Source: Candidatus Omnitrophota bacterium (GTDB taxonomy: Bacteria; Omnitrophota; Gorgyraeia; Zapsychrales; JANLHA01). Taken from it: 64,000 bases of DNA. A program made the translations under genes and the position numbers. The stretch is from positions 290,509 to 354,508 of the forward strand of contig JAKLFA010000003.1 in the NCBI GenBank assembly GCA_022711395.1. Direction: 5' to 3'. Position 1 is the first letter of the stretch. The number at the start of each line of letters is the position of its first letter. The notes beneath the pieces were generated by a model. It searched no databases. It worked only from the letters and a program-made list of their open reading frames with translations, and was not told where the DNA came from. This document shows, one piece after another, positions 3,623 through 33,700 of this stretch.

Positions 3623-3639
3623 TTTTTAAGGAGAGGGTT

Positions 3640-4623
3640 ATGAGTGAAAAAATCAAAGTTGTTGTGACCGGAGCCGCCGGTCAGATCGGGTATTCGCTGA
3701 TCTTTCGGTTGGCATCAGGAGAAGTTTTTGGGCGTGAAACACGGGTTGACTTAAGCCTTTTGGAGGTGGAAGCGGCGATTCCTTCGGCCAAGGGCGTTGT
3801 CATGGAGCTTGAGGACTGCGCATTTTCCAGTTTAAATAAAGTTTCGTTGTCGGCCGATCCTTACGAAGCGTTTAAGGACGCGGATTGGGCGCTTTTGGTG
3901 GGGAGTTTTCCCCGCAAGGCCGGTATGGAACGGGGAGAACTTTTAACGATCAACGGAAAAATTTTTATTGAACAGGGAAAGGCTTTAGACGAGCAGGCCA
4001 AGGAGACCTGTAAGGTCTTGGTCGTCGGAAATCCTTGTAATACAAACGCTTATATTGCTAAAGAAACCTGTCGTCGCATTTCATCACGCAATTTTTTTGC
4101 CATGACCATGCTGGACCAATACAGGGCCCAATCCCAGTTGGCCTTAAAGGCCGGGGTTGCGGTCTCGGAAGTTAAGAATGTGGCGGTTTGGGGCAATCAT
4201 TCCGCGACACAGTTTCCTGATTTTTATCATGCCACGATTTCTGGACGGCCCGCTTGCGAAGTGATCAGGGACGAACAGTGGCTGAAAACCGAATTTTTGG
4301 AAACGGTCCAAAAAAGAGGCGCAGCCGTGATTCAGACCCGGGGGAAATCATCTGCCGCTTCAGCAGCCAACGCGGTCGTAGGGACGATTCAGGGCCTGAA
4401 TAACCCCACCCCCAAAGGAGAATGGTTTTCGGTCGCGGTAGAATCGGACGGGAGCTATGGAGTTGAACCCGGAATCATCTTCGGATTCCCGGTTGTTTAT
4501 GACGGACACAAATGGACGATCGTTCAGGGCATTGAACATGATGAATTTGCGCGCGAAAAATTAAAGAAGACGCTGCAGGAGCTTCGACAAGAGCGCGAAG
4601 AAGTGCGGAAGCTTTTAAAATAA
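3640..4623 (+). CDS. mdh: malate dehydrogenase (LDH/MDH family, cytoplasmic type)
   Basis: 327 aa. It has the N-terminal Rossmann motif [15 protein letters not shown], plus [11 protein letters not shown] and [12 protein letters not shown] good SD (aaggagagg) precedes the ATG. Confidence 0.85.
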
Positions 4624-4734
4624 AGACCATATTGAAAAACTTGTTTCGATTGAACGGAAAAAATTGATTTTTCCCTGTAATCATTCTTGCTTCTCATGTA
4701 TACTTAAATTTGTAAATTACATAAGGAGGAGAGA

Positions 4735-5715
4735 GTGCGCATCGATAGCAAGCGAATCGGCTTTTATGTTTTGTTTTTATGTGTTGTTTCTGTTCTAGGA
4801 TGTGATCAGGTCCAGAAATTCACCCAACGAATATCCCCCAAAAAAGAAAAGCAAGGCCAGCTTCAAATACAGCAGCAAGCAGCGACGGGCCCTGTTTCGA
4901 ACTCAGCAGTACAGCAGCCGCAGTCCATGGAAAACGTCGTGGTCCGCGTTGGAAATTGGGCGTTAACAAAAACCGACTATGATAAACGAGTGGCTGCGCT
5001 CCAAGAAATGATCCCCGATTTTGATCCGCAAAACAAACAGCAGGTCCGTTTTATTATTGAAGAACTCCTCCAACAGCAACTTTTTGTCCAGGACGCATTG
5101 CGAAGAGGGTTAGACAAAGATGAGGATATGGAGATTGCCGTGCAAGAGTTTCGGAATTCTTTGCTGGCACAAAAATTGGCGGCAGACCTTTTGAAAGACC
5201 TGGCGGTTTCCGAGGAGGAAATAAAGGCCGCGTATGAACAGTATAAAGAAAATTTTACGGTTCCGTTTCAATGGAAGGTGCGGGAGATCGTCGTGAAGAA
5301 TGAAGCGGAGGCGCAGGATATCGTTGTTCAGTTAAACCAGGGATCCGCTTTCGAGGATTTAGCGCAGAAAAGGTCCATTTCTTCTAGCGCATCGAAGGGC
5401 GGCGACCTGGGGATCATGATGGTCGAAAATTTTGAATTTGAAAAGATGGCTCAGACCGTTTTTATTTTGGAGCCCGGGCAGGTCAGCAACTATTTTAAAG
5501 GCCCCTTAGGGTATTATATCGTGAAAGTGGAATCCAGGACGGGCGGAGAAAGCCAGTCATATGATGATGTGAAGGCGATGATCGAACAGGAGCTTTTGAT
5601 GCAAAAGCAGCAGAACGCTGTTTTGGAGCATCTCGATAAGTTGCGGAGCGAGATCCCGAATCAGATCAACGAACAGCTTTTGGGGTTGAGCCCGGAAGTC
5701 AATACGCAGAAATAA
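4735..5715 (+). CDS. parvulin-type peptidyl-prolyl cis-trans isomerase lipoprotein (SurA/PrsA/PpiC-like)
   Basis: GTG start with SD aaggagga. Lipoprotein signal with lipobox VLGC. The PpiC domain reads ...FQWKVREIVV...GGDLGIM...GYYIVKV. Confidence 0.7.
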   Translation: MRIDSKRIGFYVLFLCVVSVLGCDQVQKFTQRISPKKEKQGQLQIQQQAATGPVSNSAVQQPQSMENVVVRVGNWALTKTDYDKRVAALQEMIPDFDPQNKQQVRFIIEELLQQQLFVQDALRRGLDKDEDMEIAVQEFRNSLLAQKLAADLLKDLAVSEEEIKAAYEQYKENFTVPFQWKVREIVVKNEAEAQDIVVQLNQGSAFEDLAQKRSISSSASKGGDLGIMMVENFEFEKMAQTVFILEPGQVSNYFKGPLGYYIVKVESRTGGESQSYDDVKAMIEQELLMQKQQNAVLEHLDKLRSEIPNQINEQLLGLSPEVNTQK

Positions 5716-5762: not shown

Positions 5763-6605
5763 ATGAATTTAGAAAACAAAAAACAGATCGCTATTATTTT
5801 GTTGGCTGTTGGTCTGGGCCTGGTGGCGTCGGTCTTGACGGCGCAGTTCGTTGATACGAAGATCGCCGAGCAACGGAAAGCGTTGAGCGAAGAGATCACT
5901 CAGACAAAAGTGGGGCCGCTGGTCCGCCAGATCCAGGAGCTTGAAAAGCAAATGGTCGATATGGCGGAAGAGCAAAAAAGGCTCGCTGCTATACGGGTCG
6001 CACAACCGGCTCCGACGGCTGAAGGCGGGGCGCCTGTCGAAGGAGCCTTGATCGCGGAAAAGGCGGTCAGCAAATCCACATTGGCGCTGATGACGCCTTC
6101 CGGAAAGCGCGCGTTCACGGTCATGATCGACTCGTTATCAGCGGTCGGAGGCATGATCAGCCCGGGAGATTTTGTTGATATCATTGTTGATGTCAAAATG
6201 CCAGACCCGACTGAAGGCGGAACAAAGGATGTTTCGTCGATCATTTTTCAGAACATACAGGTTTTAGCGGTAGATACGAACCTCAAAGCGTCTGGTCAAT
6301 ACGAACAGCAATCAAAAGCAAGGTCTTTGAACTTGACCTTTGCGCTCACGCCGGAGGAGGCGGGGCTGATGTCCTTTTTGCAAAAACATGGACAGATGCA
6401 GCTTTTATTGAGAGCTCCGGCGGAAGACGAGATCGAGCTTGTTGAAGTTGCTTCATGGAGGTCCTTGGCGGACTATGTGGCCGAAAAGCAAGGGACAGAG
6501 CTCGTGATCCCAAGGACAAAAGCGATCATTGAGCCGATCTCGACAAAGACGACAGAGGAAGTGAAGCCGTTTATTGAGATTTTTGAAGGCGGCCGGGCAA
6601 AGTAA
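5763..6605 (+). CDS. cpaB: Flp pilus assembly protein CpaB/RcpC-like
   Basis: 280 aa. One N-terminal TM helix and an SAF/CpaB-like core (GKRAFTVMIDSLSAVGGMISPGDFVDIIVDV). The gene sits first in the tad cluster. Confidence 0.65.
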   Translation: MNLENKKQIAIILLAVGLGLVASVLTAQFVDTKIAEQRKALSEEITQTKVGPLVRQIQELEKQMVDMAEEQKRLAAIRVAQPAPTAEGGAPVEGALIAEKAVSKSTLALMTPSGKRAFTVMIDSLSAVGGMISPGDFVDIIVDVKMPDPTEGGTKDVSSIIFQNIQVLAVDTNLKASGQYEQQSKARSLNLTFALTPEEAGLMSFLQKHGQMQLLLRAPAEDEIELVEVASWRSLADYVAEKQGTELVIPRTKAIIEPISTKTTEEVKPFIEIFEGGRAK

Positions 6606-6636: not shown

Positions 6637-8352
6637 ATGAGCCATACTCAAGTCTTTAAAAAACTGAGCTGTGTCCTGTTAAGCGCATGGCTGGCGATCG
6701 TCTGGTCGCTTCCTCCTTGCCAGGCGCAGGGATCGATCAATGAGGACATTGTTGACACCCGTGAGACCGACGAGATGTTTTTGTATCTCGGAGACCTGGG
6801 GACGCTGCGGGTCTATAATCTTACAAGGCTTGCCGTAAGCAACCCGGGGATCGTTGAGATCGTTAACACGGATGTGAACCAGATCCTTCTTGTCGGAAAA
6901 CAGGCTGGCGAAACACAGTTTTTCCTTTGGGACGAGTATGGCAAGCGGACGGTCATTATCCGGGTCCTTGAAAGGGATCTGGAGCTTATAAGACGGCGGA
7001 TTACGAAGCTTTTGGAGGCGGCCGAGATCGACGGGGTGATTTTGGATTATAATCCGCTGGAAGGGAAGATCCTTGCCCGCGGAAAAATGAACAAAACGGA
7101 AAAAGAGGAATTTGACAAGGTCGTTGAATCTTTTGGCGATTATTTGATCAACATGGTCCAGGAACAAAGCGATCTGATACAGATTGATTCACAGATCACG
7201 GAACTTAATAAGACGCTCAACGAGATTTTAGGGGTGAGCTGGAGCCAGTCTTTTAATGTTGAAGAAACGCTTCCTGGCTTTGACGGAAAAATTTATGATA
7301 CGTTCAGGATCGGGGACTTCGCCAGAACAACCAAGATTTTGGCGACAGTTAACGCCTTACTCACAACTTCGCAAGCCCGGAACCTGTCCCGTCCCAGCGT
7401 CACAGTTGCCGATGGAGAAGAGGCCAGCATTTTGGTTGGTGGCGAGGTTCCAATTACGTCAACGGTCGTGGGGGACGGGGGACAAACGGAAAGCGTTCAA
7501 TACAAGAGCTACGGCGTGGAGATGTCCGTTACGCCCAAGATCCAAGATGATAACAAGATCGAGATCACGCTTAGTGTTTCGGTGCGGGATGTTGATAGCG
7601 GGACGGGAAACACAACATCGTTTGCAACAACAACAGCGGACACCAAGGTCCTTTTAGATGACGGCCAAACGATCGTGATCGCCGGCTTGATAAAACAAAA
7701 CGAGCTGTCCACTGAAAAGAAGGTCCCGTTTTTGCATAAAATACCGATCCTCGGGCTGTTTTTCAGGAATCGCGATTACAACAAAACCACGGACAAAGAA
7801 CTTGTGATCTCTTTAACTCCGCGTATTTTGAGACAGAAGAACAAGGAAAAATATGTTAAGTCGGAGAAACGGCCGGCTGAGGAGATCAAGGCTGCGGCTC
7901 CGTCTTCTGGTGAAGAGCAGCCCGCAGATGTTTTAAATGAAGAGACGGATGTGGCAGCGGGATCCGAGATGGAGTTTTCAAATGAAACGGTAGATCTGGA
8001 GGCCATGCCGCAGATCTTATCCGAGGATGTTGAAGAAGATGATGCCGACCTTGTAGCGGAATACGCCCGCAAGGTCCAGAACAAGATCGCCAGTAAGATC
8101 ACGTTTCCTTATGAGGCGATCGAACAGGGATGGGAAGGCACCGTGATCTTGTCGATCGTTGTTTTGAGCGACGGGACCCTGAATAAAGCAGATGTTCAAG
8201 AATCTTCGGGGCGCGCGATTTTCGACAAAGACGCCGTGAATACCGCAGAGATCGTTTCTCCATTTGATCCGTTTCCTGTGGATTTAGAGATGGAAGAAAT
8301 TGAGATTTCCATACCGGTGATCTACAGTCAACAGCTGACAAGTAAAGAATAA
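6637..8352 (+). CDS. cpaC: Tad secretin (CpaC/RcpA family) with C-terminal TonB-C-like domain
   Basis: 571 aa. Signal peptide. A pilus-secretin N-domain (LRVYNLTRLAVSNPGIVEIVN...) and a secretin core (VADGEEASILVGGEVPITS...VLLDDGQTIVIAGLIKQ...KVPFLHKIPILGLFF). The C-terminal ~90 aa resemble TonB C-terminus (YEAIEQGWEGTVILSIVVLSDGTLNKADVQESSG...). Confidence 0.75.
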   Translation: MSHTQVFKKLSCVLLSAWLAIVWSLPPCQAQGSINEDIVDTRETDEMFLYLGDLGTLRVYNLTRLAVSNPGIVEIVNTDVNQILLVGKQAGETQFFLWDEYGKRTVIIRVLERDLELIRRRITKLLEAAEIDGVILDYNPLEGKILARGKMNKTEKEEFDKVVESFGDYLINMVQEQSDLIQIDSQITELNKTLNEILGVSWSQSFNVEETLPGFDGKIYDTFRIGDFARTTKILATVNALLTTSQARNLSRPSVTVADGEEASILVGGEVPITSTVVGDGGQTESVQYKSYGVEMSVTPKIQDDNKIEITLSVSVRDVDSGTGNTTSFATTTADTKVLLDDGQTIVIAGLIKQNELSTEKKVPFLHKIPILGLFFRNRDYNKTTDKELVISLTPRILRQKNKEKYVKSEKRPAEEIKAAAPSSGEEQPADVLNEETDVAAGSEMEFSNETVDLEAMPQILSEDVEEDDADLVAEYARKVQNKIASKITFPYEAIEQGWEGTVILSIVVLSDGTLNKADVQESSGRAIFDKDAVNTAEIVSPFDPFPVDLEMEEIEISIPVIYSQQLTSKE

Positions 8353-10562: not shown

Positions 10563-10910
10563 GTGAAAATCTTAAATACCACCAAAAGCACGGTTCTTGT
10601 TTTAAAAGCGGAAAAAGCCGACACTCCATTTTCTCGCATCAGGGGGCTTCTTGGGCGGGCGTCTATCGCCCAGGACGAGGGGTTGATCATTACGGATTGC
10701 AGAAGTATCCACATGATGTTCATGAAGTTCGCCATTGATGTGGTATTCGTGGACCGCCATCACACGGTGATCGGGGTGGTCAAAAACATCAGACCATTTC
10801 GCATGAGCCCTTATTTTTTAAGGGCGTCTTATGTTGTGGAGATGGCGCCCGGCCGGATCACAGAAAGCCGGACAGAAATCGGTGATCAGCTTAGGATCGA
10901 AGGCTCCTGA
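10563..10910 (+). CDS. DUF192 family protein
   Basis: 115 aa. DUF192-like pattern (RIRGLLGR...IHMMFMKFAIDVVFVD...SYVVEMAPG). GTG start without SD, so the start is uncertain. Confidence 0.55.
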   Translation: MKILNTTKSTVLVLKAEKADTPFSRIRGLLGRASIAQDEGLIITDCRSIHMMFMKFAIDVVFVDRHHTVIGVVKNIRPFRMSPYFLRASYVVEMAPGRITESRTEIGDQLRIEGS

Positions 10911-11177
10911 TCAAAAACTATCCCAATCGATATTGTTGATCGTTTGATTAAGCTCATCAAGCCATTTGTGACAGAATTTGCAAATGTGCGCTTCTTGCAG
11001 GATTTTTTCACCGCAAAAAATGCAGGGTTTTTTGTCAATGCTGGGGTAAGGGACATCTAGAAGGTCATCAATGATGAATTGATTGCAGTGGTGGCAGCGG
11101 TTGGTGTGTTCGTCGAGATGTTCGTAACAGTAGGGACATTTGAGCATAACGGACTCCTGGAATGAGCGTATAATCAA
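10911..11177 (-). CDS. small double zinc-ribbon protein
   Basis: 88 aa with two CxxC...CxxC pairs (CPYC..CHHC; CIFC..CKFC). It is convergent with DUF192, and the two stop codons abut. Confidence 0.45.
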   Translation of the reverse strand: MIIRSFQESVMLKCPYCYEHLDEHTNRCHHCNQFIIDDLLDVPYPSIDKKPCIFCGEKILQEAHICKFCHKWLDELNQTINNIDWDSF

Positions 11178-13028: not shown

Positions 13029-13226
13029 CTGGATATCAACAATTGATCTTTGTCTAATTCTCTGCCTAAGGTAGAGATTTTTCCGCGTAATACTTTGAGA
13101 TACAAGTATTTGCGGAGGCCGTGAAGAGCGGCCATATATGCCCACTCGGTTTTCTGCTTTAAGTTGCAAAAAGCGGGCAACGGTTCACCTGTAACACATA
13201 AGAAACAGGCGCGGAGAGGCTTGAAC

Positions 13227-13367
13227 ATGGTTTCAAAAATGGGACAAAGTTTAGTTGAATATGCCATCGTCGTGTCCATTGTGGCGGCCGCCATGGTTGC
13301 CATGAGTACTTATGTGTTCCGTTCGGTGCAGGCAACGCAACAGGCGATCCATGAGGAATTCCGATAA
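13227..13367 (+). CDS. flp: Flp-family pilin 1
   Basis: Class-III prepilin signal KMG|QSLVEYAIVVSIVAAAMVAM, with Glu at +5 of the mature peptide. SD ggagagg lies 8 nt upstream. The longer 13164 start is less likely. Confidence 0.75.
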   Translation: MVSKMGQSLVEYAIVVSIVAAAMVAMSTYVFRSVQATQQAIHEEFR

Positions 13368-13401
13368 AACTAAAAGAAGCAAACTTTAAGGAGGATTTAG
13401 T

Positions 13402-13596
13402 ATGTTTAAAAATAAACTCTTGAAGCGCCGCGGGCAAAGCACATTGGAATATATCGTGTTGGTTACAGCGATCATTGTTGTTTTGCTCATCTTCTTGAAT
13501 CCGAGCACGGGTAGATTTTCTACCTATTTGAACAGGGCCCTGGATTCAGCAGGCCAAGGCATGAATTTAATGTCTTGCCGTGTTTTTGCCAAGTAA
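13402..13596 (+). CDS. flp: Flp-family pilin 2
   Basis: KRRG|QSTLEYIVLVTAIIVVLLIF. SD aaggagg. Confidence 0.75.
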   Translation: MFKNKLLKRRGQSTLEYIVLVTAIIVVLLIFLNPSTGRFSTYLNRALDSAGQGMNLMSCRVFAK

Positions 13597-13610
13597 ATTT
13601 GTTATGGCAC

Positions 13611-13633
13611 GGCACGCCTTGGGCGTGTTTTTG
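13611..13633 (+). terminator. putative intrinsic terminator after pilin 2
   Basis: cacgcc-ttg-ggcgtg hairpin followed by TTTTTGG. Short stem, moderate confidence. Confidence 0.35.
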
Positions 13634-13670
13634 GCTCATAATGAATCTAAACGTTTAAGGAGGAAAAAAC

Positions 13671-14048
13671 ATGTTACAAACAATTTTAAAAAATAAAAGA
13701 GCGCAGCAGACCGCAGAATATGCTCTTTTGATCTCTTTGGTCGTTGCTGCTGTGGTTGCGATGCAAACCTATGCACAGCGCGCTCTGCAGGGACGCATCC
13801 GTCAAGGTGCGATTTACATGAAAAATCAAACGGATACTAAGTTTGATCCCACCGGTGCAGCCAGCACAAAGCTACAGTATGCGCCGTATTATTTGACATC
13901 AGAGTACCAGGTTACGAAAGATGAAAATACGGATGACTTTTATTCTAAGTCAAAAGGGTTTGGGATCGATCAGATTTCAAACACGACCAGAGACGCTGGC
14001 GGGTTTAAGGAAGAAAACTTCAACACCGGCGATACGTCAAATTGGTAA
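13671..14048 (+). CDS. Flp-like pilin paralog 3 (extended, 125 aa)
   Basis: KRA|QQTAEYALLISLVVAAVVAM, then the family motif QRALQGRIRQGA. SD aaggagg. Confidence 0.65.
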   Translation: MLQTILKNKRAQQTAEYALLISLVVAAVVAMQTYAQRALQGRIRQGAIYMKNQTDTKFDPTGAASTKLQYAPYYLTSEYQVTKDENTDDFYSKSKGFGIDQISNTTRDAGGFKEENFNTGDTSNW

Positions 14049-14087
14049 TATTAACCAAAGAGCTGAATTTTTTAAGGAGGATAAATT

Positions 14088-14411
14088 ATGTTTAAACGAT
14101 TAAGAAAAAGACGCGCGCAAAGCACCTTGGAATACGCGGTGTTGATTGTTATCGTCATCGGCGCGCTTTTGACTATTCAAACATATGTCAAACGCGGTAT
14201 CCAAGGCCGTTTGCGGCAAGCATCTGACGATATCGGCGATCAGTTTGATGTTGATATCAATATGAGCCGCAAGACGAAATTCCATTCCAAGACCAACGAA
14301 ATTTACAATGTTGGGACTTTGAACAGCGTCTTGATCGACAAAGAAACAACAAACGTTGTTTATAACGTGATCTTTACTGGAAACATGGATTACACATATT
14401 GGGGCAAGTAA
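14088..14411 (+). CDS. Flp-like pilin paralog 4 (107 aa)
   Basis: KRRA|QSTLEYAVLIVIVIGALL, then KRGIQGRLRQASDDIGDQFD. SD aaggagg. Confidence 0.7.
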   Translation: MFKRLRKRRAQSTLEYAVLIVIVIGALLTIQTYVKRGIQGRLRQASDDIGDQFDVDINMSRKTKFHSKTNEIYNVGTLNSVLIDKETTNVVYNVIFTGNMDYTYWGK

Positions 14412-14438
14412 TCCCTATATGTTAATTTGCAGCAACAA

Positions 14439-14487
14439 CAGGCTTACTCGGTCAGCCCGAAATCGGGTCGGGTAAGCCTGTTTTTTT
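14439..14487 (+). terminator. strong intrinsic terminator inside the pilin array
   Basis: caggcttac ... gtaagcctg stem with a nested cccgaaatcggg hairpin, followed by TTTTTTT (14481-87). Confidence 0.7.
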
Positions 14488-14521
14488 CCACAGCATCCAA
14501 GGACGTCAGGGGGCTGGAGTC

Positions 14522-14911
14522 ATGTTCAGGCGCAGTAAAAAACAATATGCACAAGCCGGAGTCGACTACGTTCTCATCTTTTTTTTGGTGACAGCCGCCG
14601 TACTTGCCATGTCTACTTACGTTAACAGGGCCATCCATGGCCGCCATCTTATGGTTCGCGGGTTTATGTATGATCAGGTCAATGCTGTTTTTCGAGACAC
14701 CACATTAAATCTATACGGAAATTTTGTTCGGGGTTACGACCCGTATTATTTAAAAGTGGAAAATGAACGCCGGCAGGATTCTGTGATCGTGGACACGTTG
14801 CAGGCCGGGGTTTATGGTGGGACGGTCCCTATAGCGAAGAAAGAATATTTGAACTATGAAACAGGAGCGGACTCTTTTTCTAACCAGCTTCCGCCAAAGT
14901 TTGCCAATTAA
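14522..14911 (+). CDS. Flp-like pilin paralog 5 (129 aa)
   Basis: KQYA|QAGVDYVLIFFLVTAAVLAM, then NRAIHGRHL. Confidence 0.6.
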   Translation: MFRRSKKQYAQAGVDYVLIFFLVTAAVLAMSTYVNRAIHGRHLMVRGFMYDQVNAVFRDTTLNLYGNFVRGYDPYYLKVENERRQDSVIVDTLQAGVYGGTVPIAKKEYLNYETGADSFSNQLPPKFAN

Positions 14912-14915
14912 GCTT

Positions 14916-15263
14916 ATGGAATATAAAGAATTAAAATATAAAGAAAGACAGAAGGCGCAGACATTTCTGGAGTATGTTTTGTTGTTCAGCATAGTTGTCG
15001 GGATCGTAATAGCGCTTTCTCCTTTGATGAAACGAGGGATACAGGCGACGGTGAAATCTGTGGCGGACCAGATCGGGCTTCAACAGTGCGCTGAACAGAA
15101 GGGCGGAGAGGACGGGAAAATTGATTTGGTTGATACGCGGGCGGACGTCAGAAAGAAAAAAACACGCATCGAGAGAGTGGGGAATTTAATGTATCAATAT
15201 GATGACGCGACGATTGTGGCGTCGCAACAGCTCACAAATTCGGGGTTTACCAAAGAATATTGA
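14916..15263 (+). CDS. Flp-like pilin paralog 6
   Basis: Internal ATG after the previous stop. QKA|QTFLEYVLLFSIVVGIVIAL, then KRGIQATVKS. Confidence 0.6.
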   Translation: MEYKELKYKERQKAQTFLEYVLLFSIVVGIVIALSPLMKRGIQATVKSVADQIGLQQCAEQKGGEDGKIDLVDTRADVRKKKTRIERVGNLMYQYDDATIVASQQLTNSGFTKEY

Positions 15264-15274
15264 AGGAAAAGGCT

Positions 15275-15589
15275 ATGCTATCTCGAAAAGGACAGTCTGT
15301 GTTAGAGCAATCCATGATCTGGGTTATCATTATGGCGGCGATCCTGACCATCGGGGTTTATTTTAAGCGGGGCATACAAGGACGATGGAGGGCCGCTATC
15401 GACGATGTGGGCGATCAGTATGATCCGTATATGGCGGATACGAACCTTGTTTTTGGCGATCGCGCCAACGTGTTCACCAAGATCTTGACCATGGAAGACG
15501 GAAGCGGGTATTGGACGTTAAGGGAAGATTATACCAATTCTACAAGCACTAAAACGGGCTATGAATCTTTTGGTTCTTTTATACCGTAA
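15275..15589 (+). CDS. Flp-like pilin paralog 7
   Basis: RKG|QSVLEQSMIWVIIMAAILTIGV, then KRGIQGRWRAAIDDVGDQYD. SD aaggaaaagg. Confidence 0.6.
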   Translation: MLSRKGQSVLEQSMIWVIIMAAILTIGVYFKRGIQGRWRAAIDDVGDQYDPYMADTNLVFGDRANVFTKILTMEDGSGYWTLREDYTNSTSTKTGYESFGSFIP

Positions 15590-22341: not shown

Positions 22342-23199
22342 ATGTTCGTTCTCGCGTTATTTTTCTTTTTTACAACCTGCGTGATCGTTGGGTATTGGAT
22401 CCTGCCGTCAGCGTATCGTCAAACAGTCGCTTTAAATCAAAAAAGGGCCCATCAGCTTTCTTCTAAACTGGAGAGGGTCATTCCCCGGGCCCAGATCCGT
22501 CAAGTGGTCCAGATGTATCTGCTCGCCCCGCTTCTTCTGGGCGGGCTTTTCTTTGTTTTCTTTCCGCAAAAAATGCAGGTTTACGGTGCCGTGGCGGGGG
22601 TCGTGCTCGGTTTTATTTTTCCGTCGATCTACACGCGATTTTTGATCGCGTCCAATAAAAAGAAATTTTCTGATCAGCTGATCGATGTGCTGATGATCAT
22701 GTCCAGCTCGTTCCGCGGGGGGTTAAGCTTGATGCAGTCGATGGAGGCGGTCACGGAGGAGATGAGCGACCCCGCCAATCAGGAGTTCTCCACTGTCCTG
22801 GGGGAAAATAAAATGGGCGTTTCGTTGGAAGAATCGCTGGAACATTTATACAATCGTCAACCGTCGTCGTCGTTGCAGCAGATGATCACGGCGATCCTTC
22901 TGGCCAGAGAGACCGGCGGTAACCTGCCGGCCATTTTTCAGCGTATCGTTGAGGTCATCCGCCAGCGGAAGCGGATCCAGGGGCAGATCGACACTCTGAC
23001 CCTTCAGGGAAAGATCCAGGGCGTGGTCATGGCGGCGTTGCCGATCGTCTTTTTCGGGTGGGTTTCAGGGATCAATCCGGACCATTTTAAGATCATGTAT
23101 GACACGCCGGTTGGAAGGAACCTGCTGGTCGCCTCGTTTCTGCTCGAAGTGGTCGGGGCGTATATGATATGGCAGATCAGTTCATTGAAGGATTTTTAA
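22342..23199 (+). CDS. tadB: Flp pilus assembly inner-membrane protein TadB (T2SSF domain)
   Basis: 285 aa. TM helices and a GspF-like domain (LIDVLMIMSSSFRGGLSLMQSMEAV...LQQMITAILLARETGGNL). Confidence 0.8.
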   Translation: MFVLALFFFFTTCVIVGYWILPSAYRQTVALNQKRAHQLSSKLERVIPRAQIRQVVQMYLLAPLLLGGLFFVFFPQKMQVYGAVAGVVLGFIFPSIYTRFLIASNKKKFSDQLIDVLMIMSSSFRGGLSLMQSMEAVTEEMSDPANQEFSTVLGENKMGVSLEESLEHLYNRQPSSSLQQMITAILLARETGGNLPAIFQRIVEVIRQRKRIQGQIDTLTLQGKIQGVVMAALPIVFFGWVSGINPDHFKIMYDTPVGRNLLVASFLLEVVGAYMIWQISSLKDF

Positions 23200-23217
23200 G
23201 AATCAAAAAGGAGCGGT

Positions 23218-24099
23218 ATGTTTTTTATCGCGGTCTTATTATGGTTTTTGTGCGCCTTTAGTTTTGTCCTGGGGCTGTTCCCCTTGGAAATGGAGGCCCG
23301 TCCGACATTGCAGGCCTTCGGTTATGAACTGCGTCCGACGAAGAAAAGAAAAAATCCTCTGGCGATCGTCCGGTCGGTTGCGATGTTCAACAGACCCTTC
23401 GTCGGTTCCGGGCAGTTGCGCGAAAAGATCCTGCGCGAACTTTCGATGGCGCATGTCAATTTAACGCCTGAGGAATTCTGGCTGTTCAAAGAGATCTCGA
23501 TCGTCGCGATGCTTATCTTTACGTATCCTTTGGTCGAGCCTGATTATATGGTCATCTGGCTTCTTTTGTGCGTGTTTTTTGGATACATGCTTCCGGAATA
23601 CTGGCTGCGCGGAAAGATCAAAAAGGTCAAGGGGATCATCATGAAAGAACTTCCCGACGCTGTTGATCTTTTGGGGCTGTGCGTCAACGCGGGGCTGGAT
23701 TTTATGCTGGCGCTGAAGTGGGTCGTTGAAAAGTCTCCGCCTTCGGTCATGGTCAGCGAGCTTAATATTTTGCTTCAGGAGATCAACGTTGGGAAGACCC
23801 GACGAGATGCTTTAAAGGCCCTTTCAGCCAAATATGATCTTGCGGACCTTGCGACCTTTACGCGGACCCTGATCCAGGCCGACAAGATGGGGACATCGGT
23901 CTCAGAAGCCTTGACCATCCTTTCAGAAGACATGCGTCTTGCCCGGTATCGACGGGGTGAGCAGCTTGCCATGAAGGCGCCTATGAAGCTTCTGGTGCCT
24001 CTTTTGTTCTTTATTTTCCCGGTTGTTGGTATCCTGGTCGGCGGACCGATCTTTATTCAGTTCATGACAGAAAACCCCATGAGCCGCATGACAGGATAG
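23218..24099 (+). CDS. tadC: Flp pilus assembly inner-membrane protein TadC (T2SSF domain)
   Basis: 293 aa. GspF-like domain (LPDAVDLLGLCVNAGLDFMLALKWV...TLIQADKMGTSVSEAL). Confidence 0.8.
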   Translation: MFFIAVLLWFLCAFSFVLGLFPLEMEARPTLQAFGYELRPTKKRKNPLAIVRSVAMFNRPFVGSGQLREKILRELSMAHVNLTPEEFWLFKEISIVAMLIFTYPLVEPDYMVIWLLLCVFFGYMLPEYWLRGKIKKVKGIIMKELPDAVDLLGLCVNAGLDFMLALKWVVEKSPPSVMVSELNILLQEINVGKTRRDALKALSAKYDLADLATFTRTLIQADKMGTSVSEALTILSEDMRLARYRRGEQLAMKAPMKLLVPLLFFIFPVVGILVGGPIFIQFMTENPMSRMTG

Positions 24100-24508: not shown

Positions 24509-24593
24509 GAAACACCTAGCCCGGAGGAAAGTGAGTTAAATTTAAGAAACCGCTTTACCTGAAAACATTTTGGACAATTCTTTAATTCTTCAA

Positions 24594-24622
24594 TGACCGC
24601 CTTTCGGCGGTTTTCTTGTTTA
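24594..24622 (+). terminator. terminator/attenuator-like hairpin in the leader of the giant gene
   Basis: accgcc-tttc-ggcggt followed by TTTCTTGTTT. It lies about 90 nt downstream of the promoter and about 85 nt upstream of the likely start codon. Confidence 0.4.
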
Positions 24623-24705
24623 TACAGAACCTTCCGGCTAGCAAACTAACGTACAATCTGGACATAAAAAAGACCCTTTTTATGGACGACAGACTGGACA
24701 TAAAT

Positions 24706-27700
24706 ATGCAGGCCATTCGTGTCTCTGATGCTCAAAGCTCTGAGAACGAGGGAGTCTCTATATCTAATAATGTCCAGAATACATATGGCACGGAGCCTGA
24801 AAAAGCCTTCAAAAGCCGTTTTAAAGGCTGGCTTCGTTTAGTTGCCGCGATCGTTGTTTTTGTCTTTCTTCCGGAGCAGATCAGCTGGGCCATGAACTAC
24901 AATCCGGCGGTCCTCTGGAGCGCTCAGCCGATCTCCATGACCGGCATGCCGATCGCCTCGCAGGCACCGGCGCTGGAGCTTCAGCTGCCGCAGCGGGAAG
25001 CGGCAGAAATGCTGGCGACCAATGTCCAGAGCCTTTTAAGCCGCGCCGCTATGGAAGGCAACCGCAATCTGGATATCCAGATCGCCTCTCCGAACCAAAA
25101 AGAATTCCGTGACATTGACGGTTTGCGTATTTCGGCCAAAACGTCTTTAAGCCCCGAAAAGATCCAGGAAGTCGCTCAATGGCTTCGCAAGCCTGGCATC
25201 CATCCGTTGAACTGCGGCGTTTTCGCCCTTCATGATTTCTTGAAATTAAGCAAAATGCCGATCTCCCTGGAACAGGCGGCTCTTTCGACCCTGTCGGTCG
25301 ACCTTCTTACAGACATTGTCAAGCCCGGAGACCCGACGCTTAAAACGTCCCTTTACGCGATCGATAAGGTCATCTCGCTCTATCAGCTCGATCACGCGGT
25401 CATTAAACTGGAACCGCAAGATATCCTAAAATTGAATGTTCCGTTCATCGCCAATTTCGGACAAGAACACTTTGTGACCGTCACGGCGATCGATGACAAA
25501 GGTGTCCACGTTCAGGACACCGGCGTTGAGCGGATCATGTCTCAGGAAGACTTCTTAAAAGACCTGAGCGGATATGTCTTGATCTTAAAGAAGAATATCC
25601 CGATCTCTGTTTCTTACCAAAATGTTGATGATGTCGAAAAAGCTTTCGTCTGGGGCGACCGCTGGGTCGATCAGTCGGATGAATTGCCCGGTCTTTTGGG
25701 CGATGTCGGCGAAGCCTGGGCGCGCGCGGGGACGGACGTTGCTATCACGGTCGTTATATCGATCGTCACCTGGGGTTTCGGGACATGGTTAAACAGCCTT
25801 GCTGAGGCTGGAAAGATCGCCGGCATGCTGGCCAAGCTCGCCAGCGAGCTGGCCAAAATGGGCACGATCATTGCGGGCATCGCCGCGATCGGTATCGGTG
25901 AACTTGTTAATACCATTAATCAGATCGCGATCATGAACGGCTGGTGGGACGAGGATGTGGGCTTCGTCATGGGCATTGTCCTTTCTACGGCGCTGTCCGT
26001 CGGCTGCGGTATGCTGACGTCGGGCTTTGCCGGAGCTCTGGATTCTTCGGTCAAGGCCGGGACGAACGGGTTGACTGGCGCGGCGCTGGGCGGGGCTGCG
26101 TTCCGGGGATTGGGGACCGGGATCGGCAACGTGCCGGTGGTTTTTGCCCAACGAATGGCGCAGTCGCTGATCGTTGCTTTTCCAAAGGCTTATCTTGCTA
26201 GAGAATTAGATAAAATTATAGACATTGATGATCCTATTTTAAAACAGGCCGCGGTCGGCTTTCTTTCAAGCCTGGGAACACAGATCGGCCTGATGGGACT
26301 TTCGTTTAGTTTAGACCAGGTTGGTTTAGATTCTGTTAATTCATTCTTAGATCTAAAGGCTCCTGAATCTTTGGGAGAATTTTTAAAAGAAGCGGGTCTT
26401 TCGATTGGCCGAGGACTTGTTGGGAATGCGGCAAGCATCGGCTTGCGGTATTTATTTTTAGAAATCGATGATGAAACATTTGCGGCCGACACTCTTGTGT
26501 CCCAGGCTATTGGTCAGGTGGGACAAACCTTTGGAAACCTTTTATTTGATATTGTCAGTTCAGGATCCTTGCCGCAAATTTTAAGAGGGGATGTTAAGAA
26601 AGGAAATTTTGTAGGTGATGACGAGGTTGTTTCTGCCGGACTGTTTGCGCGAGATTCAAACGGCGATTTACAAGAAGCTTATAAGGATGATAAAAACAAT
26701 TATTACATTTTAGGAGAGAACGACCAGAAACAGCTTGTAGGAATAGATAAAATTGTTACCCGCGGGATCGGAGATTCGGGAGTTGTTGAAAGACCTGGAG
26801 ATCAGCTCGAAAGCTTCAGAGGCATAACAATAGATGGTTCTAATTATGCTATACGCAAGAGAGACGGACAGCTGGTCGATGCCAACGACCAAAGGAGCCG
26901 GTATTTTATATTAGATAAACAAGGCCGGCCGGCTTTTCTTAATGTTGACAGCGACGGAAAGGTCACGATCCCTACAGAAAGTTTTGCGCAACTTAAAGCA
27001 AAAGGATTAGATCCCGAAGGAAACTATTCTCTTAAGGAAGACGCTTTAGAAGGGGGATTGCCGCAGCTTCATTTGATGCAGAGGCAGGCCCTATCCTCCA
27101 GATTGCTGGCGGAAGCTGTGCAGGGATTGGTAGGCGTAGCGATCGCCTTTGGAATGGATCGGCTGGAAGATGCGGTGATTGATGAAGATGATGAAGGGCA
27201 AAAAGATAAATACCAGACCCTTGGTTTACGTTTGGTCGGATTTTTGGGAACATTGGTGCTGGCAGAAGGAGCTTCCGCGCTAGGCCGTTCCAGCGGCAGC
27301 GCAGACGGCGCCAGTTTGGAAGGCGGGAGCGTTTTGAGTGCTTTCGGGGACACTTTTTATAGAGGGGGAGCGACCTTTGCTTTACAGCTTGGCAATAATT
27401 TCTTAAGGGCAAACGGCACCATGCCGAGCGGATGGGAGTATGGAAAAGGAAGCTTTGATTCTATTGAACAAATGGTCCGTTTTTATGAGCAGGCCGGCGA
27501 GCGTGCGGGTTGGGGAATGGATTCTATTTCTAAAATCCGCGGTCTGCGTAAACAGCTTGATGAAAACGAAGATCTGACGGATGAACAAAAACATTATTAT
27601 TTCTTTATGGGAGTTTCGAACATAACCAAAAAGGCGAAAGATGAATGGGCCATTGATCAGGTCAATACCAACCTTGCCGGAGGTTTTGTCAACAATGACA

Positions 27701-30700
27701 TGTTCATTGAGGGAGGGATCGTTACAAATATTAAGTCAACATTGGGGATGTTGTTATCGAAATTCCAAAAGCCGGAGATCACAAAAGACCTGTTAGGGTT
27801 TACTTATTATCGATGGGCTCTGGAAAAGACCGGAGAGGTAGAGATTGATGGAAAGACAGCTAAGGCTTTAGAAAAACTTGAGGGTGAGGCTAAGCAGGCG
27901 GGCGAAGAGCAGAGCAAGAAAGTTGATCGTTATGCTTATTATTTATATAAAACATCCGATGTCAAAATTGATACAAATATTATAGCGGAAGAAACAGAGG
28001 TCAGCATTGCCGGGGTCGGCCCTGCCGGATGGGAGATCGCCAAGATCCAGCCTGGCTTTGGAAGGGTGTCGTTTGGGATGGTCCTTGACGATGGCCTTAT
28101 GAAGAAATTAGGAATATCAGAGGGGGATATTCGTGATGGATTGGTAAAGAACGAAAATGGAGATGTGGATCTTGCTAAGACCCGCGATTCTTTGAGCCCG
28201 GATACGGTTGTCGGTATTGAAAATTTATTAAGATTGTTCAAAGAAGACAAAGGCCTGGATCAGATCTTTAACACAACTGTTTATTTAGGAGAAGGAAAAA
28301 CAGATCCAAGAAGCGTTAAGATGGAATATTTTCGTAGCGCTGGCGAAGTAAGTCCTTGGACCGCCAAAATTTTTAAATATAACGCTCCGGAAACAAAACA
28401 ATCCGGAGGACAGGTCGTAGAGAAGAGCAAAACGGTTTATTCTCTGGGATTTCAGCCGGATTATTTGAACCCCAAGGGCGCAGAGGAAGCTAATCCCACA
28501 TGGCTGATTGGACGTTTTAACGCGTCGGCTGCGGTTTATGGATATGACCGCACTCCAGGCGTGAAGGATGAGAAAGAACATATTTTAGAATTTGAAAGCG
28601 CAGCTGGTTTTAGATGGGCTTCGAAGCTTCCCGGGTCGATTGAACAGGGGCTTCCTCTTGGAGAAATGGGAATCGCTCCTGCGGTCAAGTTCGGAAAAAT
28701 GAACGCCAATCCCCGGGTGTTGGCTGTTTATGGGGACAAAACATATTACGCCCGTCAGGGAAGTCAGGGCGGGGCGTTTCAAGCGATCAATGATCTTGTC
28801 GGTTCTTTTATATCAGAGAGAAGTTTTCGTTATGATTCGATAGTCGGCGCTTTAGATGAAGGATATGTTATCTCGACATTTGAAAAATGGGGAGAAGAAC
28901 CCGGGGTCGATAAGACGGGACTTGTGCGTCTCGCCGGCGGAGGACAGCAGCCCAGTACGCTTATGATCTTCAGCGTCAATAAGGACCGTAAGATCGAGAT
29001 GGATCCTCAGACGCTTGAGATCAAAGAAAAAGAAGGTGTCAATGCTTTAAATGGACTGGGAGTGCTTGATCTTTTTACAGCAGGGATCTCGCCTTTGGAG
29101 ATCTTGCGCGGAAATATAGCGACGGGAAGTTTCTCTCCTGAACAAATGGCCGCCTATGAAGCGTCCTGGAAAAAGCTCGACGATAAAGCCCGGCAACTGG
29201 TCATGAAATTGGGCACTGATAAAAAAGTGCTGAAAGAGCTTTTAGATATCGTTAACAGCTATATCGCGCAGAACGGAGCGGCTTCTGCAACGCCGGAAGG
29301 GCTGGAAGCGTTCGTTAATTCAAAGGAAGAAGCGAAAAGCGCGGTCGGCAATCATATGGGGGAAGTGAAGGATCTTTTAGGCTTGCAACAGGCGCTTGAG
29401 GAGGTCAAGAAGCTGAATCCTTTAGATGCGGGGCAGACCCGTTTTGCCCGGGCCCGCATGTTTTTGCCAGCGGAAGATGGCACACATCCTTCTGCGACCA
29501 CCGCATCGTTTTTCCAACAGGGAGTTATTGATGAATTAACCGTAGAGGCGCTTCATCAATATTATGTTAAGGAAAGCGATAACCCGACGCCGCCAGAAGT
29601 GAAATTCGTCAAGCCCGGCACATCAACGGTCGCGGACGCTGAGACGCTGGACTCGCCGTTTGGAGTGCTGCCGAAATACGCGTCTCTTTCTGAAAGCATT
29701 GCAGGCGGTGATATTTTTTATAAAGACGGGCAGCTTGCTGATTATACAGCGATCGGCACAAGCGGAACGATTTTTAATCTGGACGTATCAAGCGGCCGGG
29801 CTATGGCGTATACGGTCGATGCAGCTAGAAAGATAAATGTTCCGGAGGCCTTTGATAAGCGATTTAAAACAGAATATGCCGGCGATTATAAGATGCAGAT
29901 CTTTTCTAACCGCAGCGGTGTTATGGCCGGAGAGGGGTCCATTCTTAATTATGGTAATAATTTCGGCTGGACCATCGGAGGCTTAAATGATTCTGAGATC
30001 AAGAACGCCATCGCTGTTCATGACGGATTGAATGTCCGCTATTTCGGAACGGAAGGGAAGGAAGGGTCAGAAGTAACATTTTTGCAAACACGCACATTTA
30101 GAGAATATAAGCCGACCGCGGATATAGAAAGGAATGCAACATTAACAGAAATCAAAGATGGCAAAACCGAAGTGGTTGGCTTAATTCATAAGATGGATAC
30201 TAAGGTTTTTGAGCTTTCTTCTTTTGAAATTGGCGGCGGATTCAGATTTTCGCTGGAAGGCAAAGGATCGGATTTTAAAGACACCTCGATCGCTCCATTA
30301 TATCGTTTTGCCACAAGCGATGGAGCTACCATAACCGTTAAGCTTCCCGATGAGCCGGATGCGCGTGTTTTGAAAGCTGACGTGTCTTTAGATTTTTCTG
30401 AAAAAGATGATGGGACTTTCCTGCGCCTGTCAAATTTAAGAGGCGATTATGACGTCAAAGCAGAGGCGGCGGGAAATAATTCAGTGGAATTTAGAAAAGG
30501 ACAGAATCTGGTCATTCCTATTATAAGCGCCCTTGGCCGAGCGACGATAAGAGAGCAAGAAAAAACAGTCGATCCGGCTCTTATAGGAGAGATTGCGAAA
30601 AAGGCCTCAACCGAACAGCAGCCTATAGACGCGAGTCAAGTGGTCGCTTCGCATTTTGTTTCTGCCGAGTTTATGGATAAAACGGCGGCGCCAGGGGCAT

Positions 30701-33700
30701 CTGCCGTGTTGGTCGAAGCGAAAGCGGGAAACGACGGCAAAAAGCAATTCGTTCTTTATGTTCTTGAAGCCGAAAACGAAGCGGAGCCAAAGGATCTTGG
30801 CCCTGTTCAGGTCATGGTTTCTCTTGATGAATTTTTACAAAGAGGGAAGATCGCTTTGGGCGAGGGCGAGAAGCAGCAGCCAGTTGTTTTTTCGACAGCT
30901 TCTATTAAAGACGCGAACGGAAATGTTATTACCGGGCTTACAGCGGAAACAGCACGAACGGCCCTAGAAAGCGCGGCAAAGAAAGATCCGTCCAGAGCCG
31001 TTTTTGTTGAACAGGTCCTTGTCCTTTCCAGTGAAGATGAGGAAAGTAAAAAAATGGTGTTAGCACAATTCCCGGAAGGAACCCAAGCAGGAATTCTCGG
31101 GAAAACACTGTTTCTTACGCCGGAAGCCCTGCAGGATCTGGCGAACGTCTCTTTTTCTCAACCGTTGAATCCCTCGCAAATTGTTGAGGTTTCTGCTGCG
31201 GATGGGTCCTCGCGCAAAGTGCTTTCCGATCCAAGCCTTTCGGCGGAAGACGCGATCTTCGCGGCAGGCGTTATACAGCAACAGCTGGTTTCTACTGCTA
31301 AAGTCGAGGACGCGGGATTTTTCTCAAAATTCACACATATTGGAATTGTTGAAGATGACCAAATTATGGGTGGTCAAATAGCCATAAGTTTTGAAGGGGA
31401 TGTTGCCCTTATTACTAAGAGCGGTCTAGCAAAGATCAAGGAGGCTCAAGAAACAGGAGAGTCTTTCTTGGGGCTGCTTGATAGAGGCAGGATCAATTCA
31501 GAGGATCAAAATTTTCAAAATTTAGGTTTTGTCGGAACCCTTGCTAAAGCAGACCCCTTGGCTGAGATCACCTTTGAGAATGGCGGCAAAGCAAATGTTA
31601 TAGCTGTTGATTTTCAAAAAGGAAAAATTCCTGAGGTTCTTGAAGCCAGGGATGAAAATGGAACGCTTATAGGGCAAGCTCTTGTTGAGAAAGCTGAACC
31701 GCGTCTTTCCTATTTATACAATCCTTTGCAGCAGGGGTATCAGGAGGATATTATTGCTGGGTTTGATATGAGCGGACGGCTTTTTGTTCCCTCCACAATG
31801 CCGGTCAGCATTTTTAAAGAAGTTCAAGAAACAGCTTTGCCTGCGGGGGCTCCGGAAGCCATTTTAAAAGAAAAAGGTCTTTTGCCGATGACCAGCCGTT
31901 CATTGAGCGGATTTTCCGGGATCATTGATTTTAATCAAGACGGGCAATTTAGGATCCACGCCGGATCAAGAGGGATCAATGAGGCCATTCAGATCATGCT
32001 CACGAAAGGCACGCCTGAAAGCAAAACAGACTGGCTTGTTACAACCTTGAAGCAGACAAGCGTTGATTATTTCAATGATTCCGGCATTAAATCCTTGAGC
32101 GAGTCTTTTGAGCAAAAGCTGAGCCAGGCTTTTTCCAGCAATAATTGGGTGGCTGTTGATAATGAGGCAAAAATTACAACATTTTTGGAGGGAACAGCCA
32201 AAGGACGAGGCCTTTTGCGTTGGCATGGTGAAGATCTTAATTTGAATGGATCTTCGGGAACGATGTTCGCCAAAGTTTCCGTAATAGATGCCAATGGGCA
32301 GACAAAAGAGCTGAAATCCAAAGAGGTTTCTTATGATCACGCCCTTGCTATGGAGAAAGGGCGAACGAATCAGGGAGACGCGTGGGTTCCAGTCAGCGGA
32401 CGTGTTGCGGAAGCGTACGTGAAAGCGAATGATGTGAGCGATCTCCCGATCGATCTTAAGAATATTCAGATCTATAAGAGACCGATGAGCCAGGAGACGC
32501 TTGATGCGTTAGTTAAATTACGGAAAGCTGTGCAGCGCTATCAAGCTGATAAGATGTTTGGTGACGGGGTATCAGCTCCTCAGGCGGAGATGGACAAGAT
32601 CATCGAGCAGGCCGAACGGCTTTATGGACGGGTAACACCGGATACGATTGTAAAAACCATGCTTTTTGGTGGTGCAGGAATTAACAGCAGCATGGTGGAT
32701 GTTATTTTAAACGAACACAACGCTTCTGTTTTCAGAGATGCCGCTGAAAAGGATGGATTAGCCGTTCAAATTCAAACGGATGTGCATTTGTCTGTATTGT
32801 CCCGAGGGCTAGAAGGTATTAATGCTTATAGCAATGTTTTATTAAGTGGCCTTGATTTGACTTCAGACGCGGGAAAGGCTGAATTCCAAAAAAGGATCAA
32901 GGATCTTAGAGAAACGTTGGCAAATAATCCAAGAGCGTCGGCCATGATCCATCTTTTAAGACGGGAGGATCAGGCGGAGGCCGGTTTGTTAAATCGTGCA
33001 ATTCAGTTTGTAAAGGTGGGTCCGGGAGGGACCGGAGGTCTGGGCTCTAATATCGAAGATCCTGCCAAATTTGCCGCGTTGGTTCTAGTGGCTATTTATA
33101 AATTGACCGAAGGCAAAAAAGATATGATGAATAAGCTGGATCCAGCACAAAATCCAGCGGTGGCGGTTATAAACGCCTTATATAACAGCCCTAAGTTCGA
33201 TCTTGCTGCCGTAGGAAGCCTTTTTGATGAAAAATTGAACGGTTCTGATCTGGGGCTTACAGAGGAGCAAAAGGCAAGTGCTATTAAGTTTTTGACCGAT
33301 GTCGGGAACTCAATGCGGGCGGAAGATGATGCGGAGACCGCTTTTCAATTTATTGTGCGTAATCAGGATCGTCAAAAGATCTTAGGAAGCGTCGAAGTTT
33401 TATTAGGAGAAAAGGTTTCAGAAGAATTAAAACAAAAGATCGGGATCGTTACCAATTTTGAGGGGGCTTTAGATAACGGAAAGGTCAGGAGGGTCGTATT
33501 TGGGGCATTTTCGGATGATACTTACAAAGCCCTTGCAGATTTTGGCAAGCAATTAAGAGCTGTTGTCAATTTGAGCGAAACGTTCAATGACGCCGGATTG
33601 ACCTTGTCCGAAAGTAAAACGTTAGTGGCCCAGGTCAGCGCCCTTCAAGAGGGAGGAAAGGCAGTAAGCCCGGCGGATGTTGTTGTTCAACTGTTTGAAA

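Follow-up and report, generated by a model that had tools for sequence, protein, structure and literature searches.

The closest described relatives of the protein reported here are the RcpA/CpaC secretins of Tad systems, exemplified by the RcpA-TadD complex of Pseudomonas aeruginosa (PDB code: 8odn). RcpA forms rings of 13 or 14 subunits and carries a short unstructured C-terminal S-domain, the last four residues of which bind the pilotin TadD, a tetratricopeptide repeat (TPR) lipoprotein. This work concerns a secretin gene in a 64,000-nucleotide stretch of DNA from a Candidatus Omnitrophota bacterium (assembly GCA_022711395.1, contig JAKLFA010000003.1, positions 290,509 to 354,508 of the forward strand), referred to below as the window. 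Its product has the PF13629 N domain and the secretin core in common with RcpA/CpaC, and its locus likewise contains CpaB/RcpC, a TadZ/CpaF-type ATPase, TadB, TadC and Flp-type pilins. At the position of the RcpA S-domain, however, it has a leash of ~65 amino acids (aa) followed by a folded TonB_C domain, and no TadD is found nearby.

Three features define TonB and TolA: a transmembrane helix at the N-terminus that engages ExbBD or TolQR, a periplasm-spanning spacer and a C-terminal domain that binds by β-strand addition. Domain III of TolA also captures its partners in this way. The module described here has the same fold and the same signature positions (YP, EG.V, DG, SSG..D..A, P..P and the final strand) as the C-terminal domains of TonB, HasB and FusB, its best TonB-type PDB matches being Helicobacter pylori TonB (6sly/5lw8), Neisseria TonB (9dc4_T) and 2gsk_B. 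In contrast to TonB, it is located on an outer-membrane pore instead of an inner-membrane motor, it is acidic and sometimes duplicated, and it has no exbBD linkage. With TolA domain III it shares the leading helix and a three-stranded sheet, as reflected in TonB_2/TolA profile matches and in Foldseek matches to 1lr0, 3qdp and 6s3w. Compared with TolA it likewise lacks the anchor and the spacer, and no TolQR, TolB or Pal genes were found in the conserved neighborhood.

According to the literature, secretins in other systems are anchored to the cell wall through the AMIN domains of PilQ, through GspB/OutB and through ExeAB. The anchoring logic proposed below is the same, an accessory periplasmic module fixing the secretin relative to the wall. 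The modules used there, however, have unrelated folds and demonstrated peptidoglycan binding, and they are N-terminal or separate proteins, whereas the Omnitrophota module is a C-terminal TonB_C domain with only putative binding. We take TsaP (LysM), which appears through entry 6ve2 among the Foldseek matches of our full-length model, to be a further wall anchor of this kind. Another likeness is offered by the gliding machinery of Myxococcus, a predatory bacterium: its GltG/GltJ proteins likewise join a TonB_C-like module to a flexible linker, in a machine for motility and adhesion. GltG/GltJ, however, reside in the inner membrane and are linked to the AglRQS motor, and it has been proposed that they pull on a partner in the outer membrane, in contrast to the Omnitrophota module, which is part of an outer-membrane component with no motor nearby.

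The locus type itself has been published. A 2023 preprint describes it as a conserved 'type II-like' secretion system upstream of the Omnitrophota giant genes, comprising gspD, gspE, gspF, rcpC, a Rotamase_2 peptidyl-prolyl isomerase (PPIase) and class III signal peptides, and a second paper presents it as the Tad complex of Omnitrophota; TonB is mentioned in neither. Two 'TonB-domain' genes beside the giant genes are recorded in a 2026 preprint, where they are discussed only in relation to the absence of TonB-dependent import and are not recognized as a secretin. No published description of a secretin-TonB_C fusion was found in the literature searched.

A Tad-type secretin fused to a TonB-type C-terminal domain

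The secretin gene encodes a product 100% identical to a database protein (P0001) annotated 'TonB family protein [Candidatus Omnitrophota bacterium]'. Its N-terminal part gives a T2SS-T3SS_pil_N match at aa 61-108 (PF13629, E 7.7e-10, 38.8 bits against a cutoff of 23), and aa 38-111 are all-β in the AlphaFold2 model with a predicted local distance difference test score (pLDDT) of ~96. The central part matches the Secretin family at aa 241-399 (PF00263, E 1.8e-42, 145.2 bits against a cutoff of 27.5). The Pfam scan of the protein gave no match to AMIN or STN domains. The N-terminus reads as a signal peptide and not as a TonB-type membrane anchor, and the gene is predicted to encode the outer-membrane secretin of a Tad/Flp-type pilus machine in this Omnitrophota bacterium.

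The C-terminal part is recognized by several independent comparisons. TonB_C (PF03544) is matched at aa 488-563 with E 8.4e-15 and 55.4 bits against a gathering cutoff of 24.6, accompanied by a weaker overlapping TonB_2 match at aa 474-557 (E 3.3e-5), and the NCBIfam profile tonB_Cterm (TIGR01352) reaches 50 bits, its cutoff being 27.1. In the PDB, the best sequence match to the last 124 aa is the C-terminal domain of Helicobacter pylori TonB (6sly, E 3.4e-5), ahead of TolA domain III. For the same 124 aa, an AlphaFold2 model built on 118 homologs has a mean pLDDT of 82.5, with core blocks at 90-96, and the module shows a helix-helix-strand-strand-helix-strand topology. When this model was compared with the PDB by Foldseek, the top 24 matches were all C-terminal domains of TonB, TolA, HasB or FusB, for example 9dc4_T (root-mean-square deviation (rmsd) 1.5 Å, template modeling (TM) score 0.75) and 2gsk_B, the BtuB:TonB complex (rmsd 1.7 Å, TM 0.77). 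Against TonB in its complexes with BtuB, FhuA, FoxA and TbpA, the target-normalized TM scores are 0.7-0.77 at rmsd values of 1.5-2.5 Å. In the full-length AlphaFold2 model (mean pLDDT 83) the module and its leading helix occupy aa 467-563; by Foldseek, the model aligns in its body with GspD, PilQ, InvG and the secretin of RcpA-TadD (8odn), and separately in its tail with TonB domains.

These scores for the TonB_C fold are far beyond chance, and a genuine TonB-C fold is joined to a Tad-type secretin in this protein. Such a fusion had been suggested by a sequence-only reading of the window, in which the quoted residues (ITFPYEAIEQGWEGTV...) begin at aa 488, within the TonB_C match; Pfam, NCBIfam, the PDB and AlphaFold2/Foldseek all agree with it, and the profile check of the C-terminus that it called for returned TonB_C above cutoff. 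The same reading held a TonB-C domain to be out of the ordinary for a secretin, and TonB-C is indeed an unusual accessory domain: TonB_C is missing from the classical Tad secretins of Rhizobium and Caballeronia, and RcpA ends in its short pilotin-binding tail.

Conservation of the fusion

TonB_C is located at the extreme C-terminus in 118 of the 120 best homologs, so the survey for the same fusion in related secretins, also called for by the sequence-only reading, gave a clear answer. True loss of the module was considered for the two remaining proteins, P0038 and P0084, and rejected, because both genes are truncated, the latter reaching the end of its contig. A species-level scan with one genome per species gave at least 592 relatives, of which the best 80 were examined. 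All 80 carry the fusion, the matches reaching residue ~563-571 except for one that is cut by a contig end. These genomes are labeled mostly as Omnitrophota; some carry other names such as 'uncultured Planctomycetales', probably placeholders, and there are one Phycisphaerae and one Elusimicrobia. In these sequences the fusion is conserved across the phylum, and it is not a one-off.

In the alignment of the 118 sequences, the module is as conserved as the barrel, with a comparable number of invariant positions (Y476, P491, G501, G513, S524, G525, D530, P542, F546 and P560 in the module). The linker carries almost no information. Its length in the homologs ranges from 38 to 247 aa, with a median of 86, and it is rich in E/A/S/K/D/P.

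The same module on other outer-membrane proteins

The module is not restricted to single copies. Two tandem modules are present in 22 of 199 secretins of the combined set and in 7 of 78 genome loci, ~10% in either case. An exhaustive phmmer search with the module alone returned 4,295 cluster representatives at E ≤ 1e-3, with 181 of them at E ≤ 1e-10; the best 150 were looked at. Among these are TolC-like outer-membrane efflux proteins carrying the same module subfamily in 1, 2, 3 or 6 copies (P0233, P0250, P0192 and P0260, respectively). They differ from the secretin fusion in that the modules are N-terminal to a TolC-like channel. The TolC-borne and secretin-borne modules are 40-51% identical and have in common a leading helix with a conserved Tyr and the motifs 'SSG..(L/F)D..A' and 'sPy.pFP'; the source labels of the TonB_C-TolC proteins are Omnitrophota or Omnitrophica. 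Two further TolC-like proteins, P0268 and P0269, are listed with P0233, P0192 and P0260 as carriers of one to six N-terminal modules. One TonB_C-TolC gene (locus L081, 10001-12076) lies in a resistance-nodulation-division (RND) efflux operon beside a giant gene of >4,373 aa, and in a close ortholog of this channel (P0273) TPR repeats replace the TonB_C modules.

Secretin-free proteins are found as well, with a signal peptide or lipobox followed by 3-4 modules. Secreted proteins or lipoproteins consisting only of 3-7 tandem TonB_C repeats include P0181, P0241, P0184, P0186, P0201 and P0238. It is noted that some TonB_C-repeat proteins form a Bacteroidota-like subfamily with an FPGG motif, one member of which has a BlaR1/M56 domain.

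The module therefore occurs on outer-membrane channels of two unrelated classes, at the N- or the C-terminus and with variable copy number and leash length. This is hard to reconcile with a Tad-specific, substrate-specific or force-transducing role, and it is the pattern expected of a general periplasmic anchoring or docking module.

Comparison with genuine TonB proteins

The sequence-only reading had raised the possibility that the module couples the pore to an energized partner, and had considered this relevant to the handling of a giant (>13 thousand aa) substrate. Among the three defining features of TonB, the secretin fusion has only the C-terminal domain. No transmembrane anchor or SHLS-type motif is seen in its sequence, domain matches or model, and the linker is acidic, rich in E/A/S/K/D and 6.7% proline, not a proline-rich spacer. 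P0237, a genuine TonB from the same search, combines a transmembrane helix and a proline-rich spacer with a C-terminal domain that is 37% identical to the module; its gene directly follows exbB and exbD. With the ExbB and ExbD adjoining P0237 as queries, phmmer gave zero matches at E ≤ 10 in the six-frame open reading frames (ORFs) of the window and 80 related loci (1.29 Mb). Because it lacks a membrane anchor and a motor-binding region, the module cannot itself transmit the proton-motive force, and without an anchor, a spacer or ExbB/ExbD nearby the name 'TonB family protein' is misleading. Single-module 'solo' proteins were also considered as TonBs; most are fragments of secretin fusions, and only P0237 and P0255 resemble real TonBs.

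The module could still bind to a stator of the ExbD/TolR type or to a TonB-box-like segment, and a motor driven by the proton-motive force would then gate the pore or draw a substrate, for instance the giant protein, through it. TonB, HasB and FusB use the same fold at energized outer-membrane transporters, a structure of the FusB C-terminal domain in complex with its substrate ferredoxin is available (9hi3), related C-terminal domains occur on genuine TonBs, and a giant gene lies downstream of the secretin. We nevertheless consider such coupling improbable. The module is placed on the outer-membrane pore and not on an inner-membrane motor, it comes without anchor, SHLS-type motif or proline-rich rod, and no ExbB/ExbD match was found in the 1.29 Mb surrounding 80 fusions. 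Tandem copies and modules on efflux TolC proteins do not fit a substrate-specific puller. The giant protein has a membrane anchor of its own at the N-terminus, and nothing connects it with the lumen of the secretin or with the module. Neither the energized partner nor the connection to a giant substrate thus found support.

A proposed role as a passive tether

We propose that the module acts as a passive periplasmic anchor or docking module and not as an energy coupler, a reading to which we give a probability of about one half. By analogy with RcpA, whose tail binds its pilotin there, the secretin core would end on the periplasmic side. Each subunit of the ring would then end in a TonB/TolA-type domain hanging in the periplasm on a flexible acidic leash, and the ring would present ~13-14 modules near the inner face of the outer membrane. 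At an estimated 0.35 nm per residue, a leash of 38-247 residues could extend ~13-85 nm, which would be long enough for the cell-wall layer. The module may hold the pore to a general component, not specific to Tad, at the level of the cell wall, and docking would both fix and mechanically brace the channel. In this manner, tethering of the pore to the cell wall, the other function envisaged by the sequence-only reading, is plausible, since the architecture and the comparative distribution fit a passive tether. For a very small predatory cell with a retractile pilus, such anchoring would be mechanically sensible.

The ligand would most likely be a protein segment captured by β-strand addition, with peptidoglycan as a second guess. 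A protein partner is placed first because peptide capture by strand addition is the only structurally demonstrated binding mode of the fold. The tandem modules argue for binding of peptidoglycan, and the acidic, variable charge argues against it.

Several points weigh against a tethering role. No ligand was identified among the candidates examined, and the candidate peptides, the CpaB tail and the PPIase motif, did not hold up on sequence comparison. Binding of peptidoglycan by TonB C-terminal domains has only been proposed in the literature. The secretin-borne modules are acidic (median isoelectric point (pI) 4.75), and their net charge, from -14 to +11, is unconserved, so that there is no electrostatic support for binding of the anionic peptidoglycan. 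It should also be mentioned that the number of subunits in the ring and the placement of the module in the periplasm are assumed by analogy.

CpaB was examined as a source of the ligand. It ends (aa 268-280) in a strongly conserved KPxIQIFRGGxEL behind an unconserved spacer. The same type of tail (EIEVIRGGRAE) is present in the CpaB of the betaproteobacterium Caballeronia (L083), whose secretin is without TonB_C, and the tail is unchanged in the two-module loci; for both reasons it is not a co-evolved partner of the module. The tail lies outside the stretch aligned to TIGR03177 (aa 10-257) and may be a general, undescribed docking motif. A matching tail was sought on the adaptor of the TonB_C-TolC operon (n=1), which ends ...IGRIISVDEFEESD and bears no resemblance to that of CpaB. 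The N-terminal motif of the lipoprotein PPIase encoded at the head of the locus was considered too; it is found in many loci, but is absent from several that keep the fusion. The motif, C-D-x-hydrophobic-x-x-hydrophobic-K-E-Y-F, is followed in many orthologs by a P/A/Q-rich spacer of 30-50 aa. The lipobox GC|D is strongly conserved, with Asp at +2, in aa 22-40 of the PPIase and its orthologs in the 80 loci.

This PPIase is also relevant to a role of the module in assembly or targeting, in which it would replace the S-domain/pilotin contact by capturing a peptide on an assembly factor, for example the PPIase itself, in order to bring the secretin to the outer membrane or assemble it there, and would have no later structural function. 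In RcpA, the contact of the C-terminal tail with the TPR pilotin TadD is essential for assembly, and the module occupies the same position. No TadD-like gene or TPR lipoprotein was found among the conserved neighbors in related loci, the lipoprotein PPIase is conserved beside CpaB, and the TPR repeats that stand in for TonB_C in the TolC-like ortholog suggest that the two are interchangeable peptide-binding modules. However, up to six modules are found on TolC-type channels, for which no need of a pilotin is known; variable copy number and leash length look like avidity and reach and not like a one-to-one chaperone contact; and the PPIase N-terminal motif is missing in several loci that keep the fusion. 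In Escherichia coli, an Asp after the lipidated Cys causes retention in the inner membrane. By this rule, which may not apply in Omnitrophota, the PPIase would stay in the inner membrane. A role confined to assembly is a serious rival, although we regard it as rather unlikely. It is compatible with anchoring, and an anchoring module may also replace the missing TadD-type contact during assembly.

The modules could instead associate with each other, by dimerization or strand swapping of which isolated TonB C-terminal domains are capable, and stabilize the ring or cluster outer-membrane channels. TonB C-terminal domains have been reviewed as dimerizing in vivo, and the many modules per ring, together with the tandem copies, favor homotypic contacts. 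In all solved structures, on the other hand, secretin rings assemble through the core and the N domains, and a disordered leash of 38-247 residues would be an odd ring stabilizer. Since RcpA rings have 13 or 14 subunits, a 13-mer could not pair off fully. Self-association is judged as improbable as energy coupling.

The Tad locus and its neighbors

The coordinates of the secretin, its parts and the neighboring genes are collected in Table 1. The genes are arranged in the order PPIase, CpaB/RcpC, secretin, TadZ-like/CpaF ATPase, DUF192, 560-aa protein, pilin array, two large pilin-like proteins, TadB, TadC and giant ORF.

Table 1. Features of the secretin gene and of the surrounding Tad locus in the window
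Feature	Coordinates	Strand	Basis and remarks
Lipoprotein PPIase, SurA/PrsA-like, lipobox GC|D, at the head of the locus	4735..5715	+	Rotamase_2, E 3e-18
CpaB/RcpC, periplasmic Tad component	5763..6605	+	PF16976, E 7e-24; TIGR03177, 97.7 bits (cutoff 71)
Tad-type secretin with C-terminal TonB_C domain, whole gene, 571 aa, ATG start	6637..8352	+	ORF and domain matches
Predicted cleavable signal peptide, ~aa 1-30 (...PPCQAQ|G)	6637..6726	+	Sequence reading; model helix aa 4-23; region unconserved
N-terminal β domain of Tad secretins, PF13629 T2SS-T3SS_pil_N	6748..6969	+	Pfam; all-β model
α/β periplasmic ring-type domain linking N domain and barrel	6979..7206	+	Model aa 115-190, pLDDT 93-97; Foldseek alignment to secretins
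Secretin core (gate and barrel)	7321..7833	+	PF00263 match; Foldseek
Short basic helix straight after the barrel, aa 401-419, S-domain position	7837..7893	+	Model; pI 9.6; low information content, poorly conserved
Acidic, disordered, unconserved linker, aa 420-465	7894..8031	+	pLDDT <50 at aa 423-456; pI 4.05
TonB/TolA-type C-terminal domain with leading helix, aa 466-566	8032..8334	+	Pfam, NCBIfam, PDB sequence search, model, Foldseek
Fused ParA/TadZ-like and CpaF/TadA-type secretion ATPase, 720 aa	8394..10556	+	AAA_31/ParA aa 4-241; T2SSE aa 365-645
DUF192 (PF02643) gene directly after the ATPase	10563-10910	+	In 62/80 loci
88-aa ORF with four CxxC pairs, zinc-ribbon-like	10911-11177	-	Same position in 21 related loci
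560-aa protein inside the Tad cluster	11304-12986	+	In 58 loci; only weak N-terminal helix-turn-helix matches, no family assigned
Flp/TadE-like pilin gene array with class III signal motifs	13164..15589	+	Mainly sequence motifs (e.g. RGQSTLEYIVLV, RAQSTLEYAVLIV)
Pair of large proteins (525 and 1,474 aa), Cys-rich in the body and pilin-like at the N-terminus, where hydrophobic segments resemble class III signals	15595-17172, 17465-21889	+	
TadB and TadC platform proteins, two T2SSF genes	22342..24099	+	PF00482, E 6.6e-18 and 5.2e-12
Giant ORF, >13,138 aa, stop-free, running beyond the window	24586..64000	+	

The gene order is kept in 75-77 of the 80 related loci. CpaB/RcpC is present in 77, the fused ATPase is kept at ~720 aa in 75, and the lipoprotein PPIase has 66 orthologs at the same position. 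In classical Tad systems, the TadZ/CpaE-type and CpaF/TadA-type parts of this ATPase are separate genes. The conserved order reaches upstream to the gyrase genes, running gyrB, gyrA, CN-hydrolase, malate dehydrogenase, PPIase, CpaB and secretin (positions 72-5715 of the window up to the PPIase, and the 80 loci). With such a fixed chromosomal position, the Tad locus looks vertically inherited and not like a mobile island.

The pilin cluster is present in 51 related loci, and its Pfam matches are weak and below threshold (Class_IIIsignal E 0.052; Flp_Fap E 0.095; TadE E 0.021, the last for an ortholog in a related locus). The two large pilin-like proteins gave no Pfam or NCBIfam match and could be tip adhesins or giant minor pilins. 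In the giant ORF, the likely start is M33 or M41 (nucleotide 24682 or 24706). Its product has a transmembrane segment at ~aa 83-97, a Peptidase_C39 match at aa 254-337 (E 2.9e-10) and then a Gly/Ala-rich hydrophobic region at ~aa 400-560.

Implications for Omnitrophota

What is new here is a mis-annotated Tad secretin with a TonB/TolA-type accessory domain, in a Tad locus that has itself been published. The label 'TonB family protein' hides the outer-membrane pore of the signature Tad machine of the phylum and falsely points to a role in the uptake of iron or nutrients. Both secretins and TonB are textbook systems, and the phylum in which they are joined has almost no cultured members. The strict conservation across hundreds of species implies that the module is functionally required.

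The recurrence of the module on TolC-like channels points to a lineage-specific way of anchoring or docking outer-membrane machines, and with these carriers the single odd fusion becomes part of what may be a tethering strategy of the whole lineage. More tentatively, and with clearly less confidence than the tether on the secretin itself, we suggest that Omnitrophota separated TonB/TolA-type domains from their motors and put them to use throughout the phylum as a tether, tunable by copy number, on the Tad secretin, TolC-like ducts and free lipoproteins. If true, this would be a previously unrecognized way of securing outer-membrane machines to the layer of the cell wall or to a scaffold in the envelope, and it could enable ultra-small predatory cells to bear the load of pilus retraction on their prey.

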